Assembly: GCA_951406725.2 (NCBI GenBank)
Contig: OX597820.1
Span: 86,676,001 to 86,740,000 of the forward strand
DNA from: Octopus vulgaris
Lineage: Eukaryota
DNA length: 64,000 bases
Reading direction: 5' to 3'
Under the pieces are notes generated by a model. That model searched no databases. It saw only the letters and a list, made by a program, of their open reading frames with translations, and was not told the DNA's origin. The translations under genes were made by a program, and so were the position numbers. This document shows positions 32,123-33,625 of the stretch, piece by piece (position 1 is the stretch's first letter; every line of letters starts with the position of its first letter).

Positions 32123-33117
32123 GGGGATGTTTATTCGCATATACAACAACTCCAGTTGCTAACTGTGAATTATAAAATAAGCTTTATTCGACACCGGAAT
32201 AATTCACAGCTTACTATGCCAATAGACCACTATTGTTCCAGAAAGTTGTTTTTATAACTTCTACGGACTGTTCGAAGCTCAGTAACTTCCTGCACCTTGA
32301 TTCTTAGATCTTACCTTGACATGCCTATCTATTTATTTATTTCCCTCTCTCTCTCTCTCTCTCTCACACACACACTATATATATATATATATATATATAT
32401 ATATATATATATATATATATATATATATTCTTTTACTTCCTTCGGTCATGAATGACTACGGGAATGCACCTAGAAAGTTACCCTCCGAGGCACAAGTCTG
32501 GGCACGGTGTTTATGGAAGACCAGCAGTCGCCCACTCATACCAGCCTCCCCTCTCCACGCCACCAGTGTTATCCAAGGGAAAGGCAAAGGCTGATACAGC
32601 TTGGCACCAGTGACGTCGCAGCTCATTTATTAACGTGCAAGTGGCTGACCACTCCACAGACACGTGTAGCCTTAACGTAGTTCACCACCCCCTGCCTGAG
32701 TCTCGTGGAGCTTTAGGTGTTTTCCCTCAATCAACACTCACAATACCCAAACCACTGGGTCATTGCGCCTCCACACACGCACACACACACACACACACAC
32801 ACACACACACACACACACACACACACACACACACACACACACACACATATATATATATATATATATATATATATATATATATATATATAATAGAAATATT
32901 AAAATTACTAAGTCTCTCTAAAAGAGAACACGGCAGCGTTCCTGGAAAATAATAGTTATCGCCATACTAATATGGCATTCTTATAAAAATAAGAATAAAG
33001 CTGTCCGCTTATTAGCTCCATGAGGCCATCGCCTTAAGTTAGCTATTTGATACACAAACTGTATCCATATAACCTTCGAACAAGGGAGGTCAGTCGCTCC
33101 ACACTACTTGACCGACA

Positions 33118-33159
33118 GCTACAGACGCGTTTCGGGGTATTGCCCCTTTTCAATGTAGC
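33118..33159 (-). ncRNA. Type I hammerhead ribozyme, U3-A8 core variant (left arm)
   Basis: Exact reverse complement of 33393-33434. Confidence 0.85.
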
Positions 33160-33392
33160 GTAGTCAGACCAGTAGGTGTCGCTTCTGACAATCTCTGTTC
33201 GAAGGTTTTATTTACCTTGTTTCGGTGGAATACATCCACTTGTTTTCAATAATAGAAATATTAAAATTACTAAGAGACTTAGTAATTTTAATATTTCTAT
33301 TATTGAAAACAAGTGGATGTATTCCACCGAAGCTAGGTAAATAAAACCTTCGAACAGAGATTGTCAGAAGCGACACCTACTGGTCTGACTAC

Positions 33393-33434
33393 GCTACATT
33401 GAAAAGGGGCAATACCCCGAAACGCGTCTGTAGC
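33393..33434 (+). ncRNA. Type I hammerhead ribozyme, U3-A8 core variant (right arm)
   Basis: GCUACA-UUGAAAA-GGGG-CAAUA-CCCC-GAAA-CGCG-U-C/UGUAGC; stem I extends via CUGAC/GUCGG and CUACU/AGUAG. Confidence 0.85.
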
Positions 33435-33625
33435 TGTCGGTCAAGTAGTGTGGAGCGACTGACCTCCCTTGTTCGAAGGTTATATGGATACAGTTTGTGT
33501 ATCAAATAGCTAACTTAAGGCGATGGCCTCATGGAGCTAATAAGCGGACAGCTTTATTCTTATTTTTATAAGAATGCCATATTAGTATGGCGATAACTAT
33601 TATATATATATATATATGTATATAC

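Follow-up and report, generated by a model that had tools for sequence, protein, structure and literature searches.

The window, the whole 64-kb stretch of octopus DNA that was analysed, holds a two-armed palindrome in (TA)n. Its left arm (32887-33274, minus strand, 388 nt) consists of one 362-nt unit plus 26 nt and terminates on its 3' side at site B (unit position 388, equal to 26). The right arm (33273-33603, plus strand, 331 nt) runs through unit positions 358-362 and then 1-326, and its 3' end lies at site A. The 62 nt from site A (unit 326) to site B (unit 388) form a tail (32887-32948, minus strand) that is present on the left arm only. One full natural unit of 362 nt with a GC content of 0.40 (32913-33274, minus strand) serves as coordinate reference, and a 26-nt direct repeat (32887-32912 and 33249-33274) recurs at a spacing of 362 nt. 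Counted in units, the insertion amounts to 1.07 on one strand and 0.91 on the other.

The arms meet head to head at 33273-33277, where an AG microhomology (33273-33274) common to both arms is followed by AGA, and unit position 1 of the left arm abuts unit position 358 of the right arm. A first-pass annotation of this DNA had described near-perfect inverted arms of 326 nt about a 3-nt AGA in (TA)n, and all of its coordinates check: the symmetric parts (32949-33274 and 33278-33603) pair with each other at 324 of 326 positions, the mismatches being at 33332 and 33334. It had also let the right arm begin with agagacttagt, in inverted relation to the left arm. The inverted relation holds, but the true start is at 33273 (unit 358), with the 2-nt AG common to the left arm. 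The (AT)n target microsatellite on the left (32847-32889) overlaps the last bases of the left arm, and the (TA)n target microsatellite on the right lies at about 33601-33618.

Both type I hammerheads that had been claimed, one in each arm, could be placed. The left one lies at 33118-33159 on the minus strand (predicted cut after 33124) and the right one at 33393-33434 on the plus strand (C17 at 33428, predicted cut after C33428); a generic hammerhead scan of both strands of the whole window returned just these two matches. The right hammerhead sits at the tip of a long imperfect stem (33340-33482, plus strand, unit 63-205). Two hairpins just upstream of site A (33560-33595, plus strand) are conserved across subfamilies, with one compensatory pair, and are a candidate RT-binding structure. 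The left arm folds with z = -7.7.

An intramolecular hammerhead dimer is excluded at this locus: the two lie on opposite strands, so that no transcript of the locus holds both, and a predicted read-through RNA would form a 326-bp duplex burying its single sense hammerhead. With this burial in any such RNA, the locus is probably a dead-end copy. With one hammerhead per strand it also falls outside the definition of an active retrozyme (Li et al. 2026), within which other members of the family, for example L010 and L191, do fall. Two-armed copies may also give rise to long hairpin RNA that acts against the family itself.

Other features lie elsewhere in the window. A degenerate inverted repeat at 31726-32143, with arms 76-77% complementary, is found between (TA)n tracts and is MITE-like. 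The element at 33624-34440 starts right after the right-hand (TA)n and contains three degenerate 57-nt repeats; its start is one that we take to be Helitron-like. Broken RT frames of a LINE at 41748-43991 (minus strand) appear RTE-like by reading of the frames.

A young family of hammerhead retrozymes

The genome (2.8 Gb, 227 contigs) was searched for further copies, and many were found, tandem and inverted ones included. The 42-nt hammerhead has 84 exact copies and the degenerate hammerhead core 1,483, with none for the reversed-pattern control in either search. That the element is young, as the first-pass annotation had proposed, is borne out by the closest copies among the 40 of 1,835 candidates that were scored, which are 97-100% identical. 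There are at least four subfamilies in all, at least three of them at 80-90% identity to that of the present locus. The closed 362-nt unit that had been rebuilt from the palindrome exists in nature, as head-to-tail arrays of 362-nt period with up to 5.5 units. Neighbouring units of present-day arrays differ by about 1.1%, and the 5.5-unit array has no differences in four of its five neighbour pairs. The element had rightly been called non-coding, the longest ATG ORF in three natural arrays being 64 codons. The family sits mostly in (TA)n, and an LTR-internal-LTR layout was found at none of the loci mapped. The locus is an insertion of a young, non-coding 362-nt hammerhead retrozyme and belongs to the family on every family-level feature tested.

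Some family members and related data deserve mention in their own right. At one locus (L102, G000:C2:114465500-114475000), a LINE with two ORFs (515 and 1,140 residues) interrupts a retrozyme whose outer ends are still B and A. Another (L075:1879-2021) has 136 nt of foreign sequence lodged between its arms; this insert terminates in AG just where the unit has its acceptor-like site and may be captured RNA or the product of templated repair. The unit's words occur in sequencing runs of seven organisms (shares 0.42-0.84), which suggests that the family is common to related species. An intron was suggested by two motifs, GT at unit 60 and AG at 356-357; the joint of the spliced form was absent from contigs of four runs, which are presence-only data. 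The runs listed for the unit's words include no RNA run; the contigs came from runs guessed to be RNA and, as assembled sequence, reveal neither circles nor strand.

The hammerhead is of type I, with a 6-bp stem I, a 4-bp stem II and a palindromic stem III (ACGCGU), and its core contains the compensated U3-A8 pair recognized in the first-pass annotation. In 35 segments that were not selected on the motif, U3 was retained in all 35, A8 in 33 and GAAA in 34; position 7 is the free position of the core and varies while U3 stays. A search of Rfam matched no hammerhead model, hairpin-type chance hits were far below gathering scores, and the miRNA hits were set aside as reflections of the palindrome. 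The circular unit folds at -115.8 kcal/mol with 63% of its bases paired (z = -6.0). In an alignment of 18 copies, both partners are changed in 7 of 65 pairs, and 97.5% of cells are paired, compared to 28-43% in slid controls; these values rest on about three related subfamilies, hence few events, and on a structure derived from the same alignment. Between subfamilies, a G-C pair of stem II becomes A-U, and the stem III palindrome changes from ACGCGU to ACAUGU. These changes are what selection for intermolecular pairing would lead one to expect. Cleavage by hammerhead dimers was reportedly described by Lunse and colleagues in 2017. Taken over these few independent events, the changes suggest that the RNA structure is under selection. 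An AT-rich stretch (unit 1-62 and 350-362; 33213-33274 and 32913-32925, minus strand) is near-invariant across subfamilies that differ by 15% elsewhere; by its conservation, this stretch around and beyond site B is likely a protein-binding site.

Two fixed outer ends and one template

The palindrome had been regarded as the element itself. It is instead one outcome of insertion, and near-perfect symmetry (within 10 nt) occurs at only 2 of 44 two-armed loci, the present one included. Among 136 arms at 80 loci, 68 have their 3' end at site A (unit 317-330, mostly 326), 56 at site B (19-29, mostly 26, that is, 388) and 12 elsewhere; the two sites, separated by 62 nt, thus account for 124 of the 136. 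The circular permutation that had been proposed stands for the 5' ends, which vary freely, but is not arbitrary, the 3' ends being fixed at two sites. Few 5' ends coincide with the hammerhead cut (151-157; 7 of 136, a weak cluster with p about 0.02, uncorrected). Larger clusters at unit 190-199 (17 ends) and 351-360 (10 ends) are probably stalls at stems. Segmental duplicates L097 and L140 were left out of the tandem-neighbour, variant/independence, arm-end, nesting and haplotype analyses, the complex locus L113 out of the variant, arm-end and haplotype analyses, L028 (an alignment overlap artefact) out of the variant, nesting and haplotype analyses, and L128 out of the nesting analysis.

Pairing of the two ends was counted at all 66 places with an exact hammerhead, a sample not chosen on ends. 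They comprise 44 two-armed loci, all head to head, 20 one-armed and two complex ones. Thirty-six of the two-armed loci combine A with B (35 without one segmental duplicate), none has A+A or strict B+B, and eight have one irregular end (three A + near-B, two B + near-B, three A + broken). Independent choice of ends allows at most 50% A+B, compared to the 35 of 35 observed (p = 3e-11). Seventeen further loci, chosen by BLAST, include 13 two-armed ones, of which 11 are A+B and one is A+A. Older subfamilies contribute 43 two-armed loci (28 A+B, one A+A, no B+B), each place counted once, in a sample partly biased towards B ends by its query. The exceptions to pairing are L080 and L111 (B + near-B) and L017 and L219 (A+A). 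Such counts show that the near-perfect symmetry of the present palindrome is incidental and that the rule lies at the outer ends. A reading as a MITE or DNA transposon was rejected, since the inverted arms differ in length and join point at every locus.

The junctions between arms were examined for microhomology. Fifty-six junctions, minus 14 with inserted bases and one alignment artefact (L028), left 41 clean ones; 36 of these have at least 2 nt of microhomology, 18 have exactly 2 nt and none has exactly 1 nt, compared to chance expectations of 17% for at least 2 nt and 28% for 1 nt. Where the flanks are not pure (TA)n, target duplications frame the whole insertion and are mostly 12-14 nt long, shared end bases included; they were measured at other loci, as the present one lies in (TA)n.

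Both arms of an insertion were copied from the same template type. Discordance at 10 polymorphic columns amounts to 9 in 316 comparisons for arms and to 9 in 374 for tandem units, compared to 41% between loci. Divergence per kb is 12 between the arms of one insertion, 16 between tandem neighbours and 32 between loci. Occasionally two templates were used, as shown by mixed haplotypes between arms (L135, L132) or between tandem units (L138). Three-way comparisons (3,859 in number) revealed 13 variants common to all three segments and two confined to the pair in the same register; singletons are somewhat more frequent in the unit that is out of register (33 compared to 15 and 23). This sharing of variants favours a circle or a very homogeneous multimer as template and does not separate the two.

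We lean towards a circular RNA. The same machinery could instead use a linear multimer transcribed from a tandem array that is young and homogeneous, with a hammerhead that is perhaps dispensable for insertion, and we consider this somewhat unlikely while taking it seriously. Such a multimer would also yield identical units, and the hammerhead cut site is crossed without deletion in 141 of 143 segments, as uncut RNA would give. The tandem units of two haplotypes in L138 fit it too. Moreover, the published account of the anole Penelope-like element (PLE) describes hammerhead mutants that insert normally and unprocessed RNA as the main substrate in vitro (PMC11167929). Against a linear template stands the divergence of the arrays, which at about 1.1% contrasts with two register-specific and 13 locus-wide variants, a mismatch that would require source arrays far younger than the typical ones. 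Conservation of the hammerhead core and stems, with compensatory changes across subfamilies, speaks against it as well.

A Penelope-type footprint and its likely mechanism

The same genome contains a young coding PLE with a 781-residue frame (RT and C-terminal GIY-YIG) and an upstream ORF of 479 residues. By our own reading of its cysteine linker, it appears to be of Neptune type. It has 592 exact hammerhead copies, (TA)n flanks, a U3-A8 minimal hammerhead with an ACAUGU palindrome, and two 3' ends. The outer of the two finishes in CTATTAT, as do both ends of the retrozyme. A tail is paired with no tail in all nine two-armed copies in which both ends are visible, and most joins have overlaps of 1-2 nt at the resolution of BLAST. 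The tail measures about 34-46 nt, compared to 62 nt in the retrozyme. This PLE, a candidate active element, is found at loci L051-L066 and L225-L259; many of its 781-residue frames are intact there, and its long 3' UTR contains repeated TGACGTC boxes. Further PLE families with hammerhead variants occur at L067, L070, L125, L169 and L222, their cores including CCGAAGA, TTGAAAA and CTGAAAA.

A search for the driver was made in several ways. The Neptune-type PLE has no alignable similarity to the retrozyme unit. When an arm was compared by blastn with 40 GIY-YIG PLE loci, no pLTR similarity was seen, and the one hit (L049) was rejected as driver, being a nested copy of an older retrozyme subfamily. 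Inspection of 19 other PLE 3' ends revealed no similarity to the unit. Hammerhead pairs several kb apart were also discarded, as they proved to be a LINE inserted into a copy, segmental duplicates or separate insertions. No RT or GIY-YIG ORF was contiguous with the element in sets of 83, 50 and 33 loci (some overlapping; tblastn), nearby PLE fragments always being separate; none of the copies examined is fused to a coding Penelope, an attachment that the first-pass annotation had weighed. The retrozyme is not an autonomous PLE, but it is inserted like one. We infer the driver from this footprint alone, no sequence-similar autonomous element having been found in the above searches.

These results bear on another reading, in which a coding Penelope still to be found has the unit as its pLTR and the copies are ordinary 5'-truncated stubs. 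The Penelope-like architecture would fit, the unit has an ATG together with GT donor-like and AG acceptor-like motifs, and the driver search scored 150 of 6,136 GIY-YIG candidates. We regard it as improbable, since units close on themselves in head-to-tail arrays that reach 5.5 copies and PLE fragments are never continuous with the element in the three sets of loci. In addition, a pattern for exit after the donor-like site had 203 matches, and the 100 of these that were listed were nearly all further subfamilies; three outliers that were retrieved proved non-coding.

That a retrozyme family is present here and that its insertion is of Penelope type is a conclusion in which we have high confidence; the Penelope-type inversion had been proposed in the first-pass annotation, and head-to-head two-armed copies with a one-sided tail recur genome-wide. 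As to mechanism, a non-coding retrozyme with two fixed ends is probably written into (TA)n by a borrowed Penelope RT-endonuclease from one, probably circular, RNA. Tandem source arrays would be transcribed, and hammerheads, probably acting as dimers via the palindromic stem III, would release monomers that circularise, by extension from Cervera & de la Pena 2020. The structured region at about unit 280-390 would be bound by an RT-GIY-YIG protein of Penelope type, probably dimeric, which would also cut AT-rich DNA with the stagger of about 12 nt that the target duplications show. One cut strand would prime cDNA at site A (326) and the other at site B (388); taking the ends as RT starts follows Frangieh 2024. 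Both cDNAs would extend towards the 5' side of the template for any length, and running round the unit would give tandem repeats. Annealing of the cDNA 3' ends via at least 2 nt, with each templating the second strand of the other, would create the head-to-head inversion, and completion of only one side would leave a one-armed copy.

Coupled priming on both strands is favoured because of the near-obligate A+B pairing, the shared haplotype and the 2-nt joins, and two-ended priming on one template has our moderate confidence. The arms could also arise by fold-back, if one cDNA (or antisense RNA) primed itself and were copied back, as proposed for head-to-head PLE inversions in rotifer Penelopes (PMC3846280). 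This would explain the haplotype identity of the arms; the present locus is nearly symmetric about a small loop, and arm A lies within arm B at 15 of 44 loci and B within a longer A at seven. We consider it quite improbable, as neither arm lies within the other at the remaining 22 of 44, where one arm is no copy of the other, which excludes fold-back for half of the loci. Near-symmetry is confined to the two loci mentioned, and fold-back alone gives no reason for the second arm to end at the other fixed site. An assembly or library fold-back artefact at this locus is hardly credible even though the contigs compared were short and none spanned the stretch, given that the arms differ at two sites and end at different fixed positions, that dozens of loci share the architecture with differing junctions and target duplications, and that both ends were seen as loose ends in independent contigs.

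Coupled priming on one template may have a wider bearing, which we put forward tentatively and as the less probable extension of the above. Animal retrozymes might be inserted by a Penelope RT-endonuclease dimer on a single circular RNA, with two fixed cDNA starts, one per strand of a 12-nt staggered cut, the trailing cDNA displacing the leading one and a 2-nt anneal joining them; this might be the general origin of the inverted pLTRs and one-sided tails of Penelope elements. If true, the 362-nt RNA would be a minimal substrate to prove that origin.

Comparison with known systems

Metazoan non-LTR retrozymes (PMC7229834), for which a PLE origin has been proposed, include mussel repeats of about 350-390 bp, and pLTR homology has been reported for 24 of 57 Xenopus families in that of bioRxiv 10.64898/2026.07.22.740005 (Li, Clavereau & Pollet 2026). 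The octopus family resembles these retrozymes in its short non-coding tandem unit (150-450 bp in theirs, 362 nt here) with GC under 50%, in its type I hammerhead with a 6-bp stem I, a 4-bp stem II and a short palindromic stem III, in its high self-pairing, in target duplications longer than 4 bp and in its co-occurrence with PLEs. It differs in its U3-A8 core, undetected by Rfam, in its (TA)n targeting and in that two thirds of the sampled insertions are inverted and two-armed with a one-sided 62-nt tail. Unlike the 24 Xenopus families, it was found to have no pLTR homology. The term 'inverted' is absent from the main text of PMC7229834 and occurs once in that of the bioRxiv report.

Endonuclease-bearing PLEs have an inverted 5' copy, a 30-40-bp tail at one end, called 'often' or 'optionally' one-sided, and target duplications of 8-10 bp, and a (TA)n bias is noted for Neptune and Naiad (main texts of PMC8557442 and PMC3846280). 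The anole Poseidon PLE, as described by Frangieh et al. (PMC11167929, main text), cuts and extends both strands, with two internal RT starts that define the tail and a predicted dimer; no difference in start site between strands is reported there, and hammerhead cleavage is not needed in vitro. The octopus retrozyme shares with endonuclease-bearing PLEs the head-to-head inversion, the tail on one arm, two fixed 3' ends, an AT-rich target and a hammerhead upstream of the ends. It is unlike them in that the unit lacks an RT/endonuclease ORF and closes on itself, the tail has 62 nt, and the hammerhead has canonical stems in place of the minimal form.

In twin priming of LINE-1, both target strands prime cDNA on one RNA, and the inversion is joined at microhomology. 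The two-strand priming on one RNA that is proposed for the octopus family, and its microhomology join at the inversion, resemble this. The two parts of a LINE-1 insertion cover different stretches of the RNA and its second start varies, whereas the arms here overlap extensively and both starts are fixed. Cercyon PLEs of Schistosoma mansoni have U3-A8 minimal hammerheads (PMC4209133, main text). Their compensated core is like that of the octopus family, and paired opposite-strand motifs 100-700 bp apart are mentioned there; in contrast, theirs are minimal and mostly single motifs, while those described here have canonical stems and lie in a tandem retrozyme.

Non-LTR retrozymes and their proposed PLE origin, U3-A8 cores, opposite-strand hammerhead pairs, inverted pLTRs, one-sided tails and the (TA)n bias are already in print in the texts cited. 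Neither a retrozyme with an inverted, one-tailed footprint nor counts of end pairing, arm haplotype and junction microhomology were found in the main texts of the open-licence literature. The enzyme that moves animal retrozymes has so far been argued from co-occurrence and pLTR phylogeny (main texts of PMC7229834 and bioRxiv 10.64898/2026.07.22.740005), and the origin of inverted, one-tailed Penelope insertions is called unresolved in those of PMC8557442 and PMC11167929. The octopus retrozyme itself carries the footprint of Penelope insertion, and a coding Penelope of this genome has a matching one. As a short, young and polymorphic family, it makes the Penelope insertion mechanism countable, and the evidence speaks for priming that couples the two target strands on a single template and, at half of the loci, against fold-back. 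Its RNA is short enough to be used in the in vitro assay already published, and the rule at the outer ends makes two mechanistic questions, the enzyme of retrozymes and the inversion of Penelope elements, directly testable.
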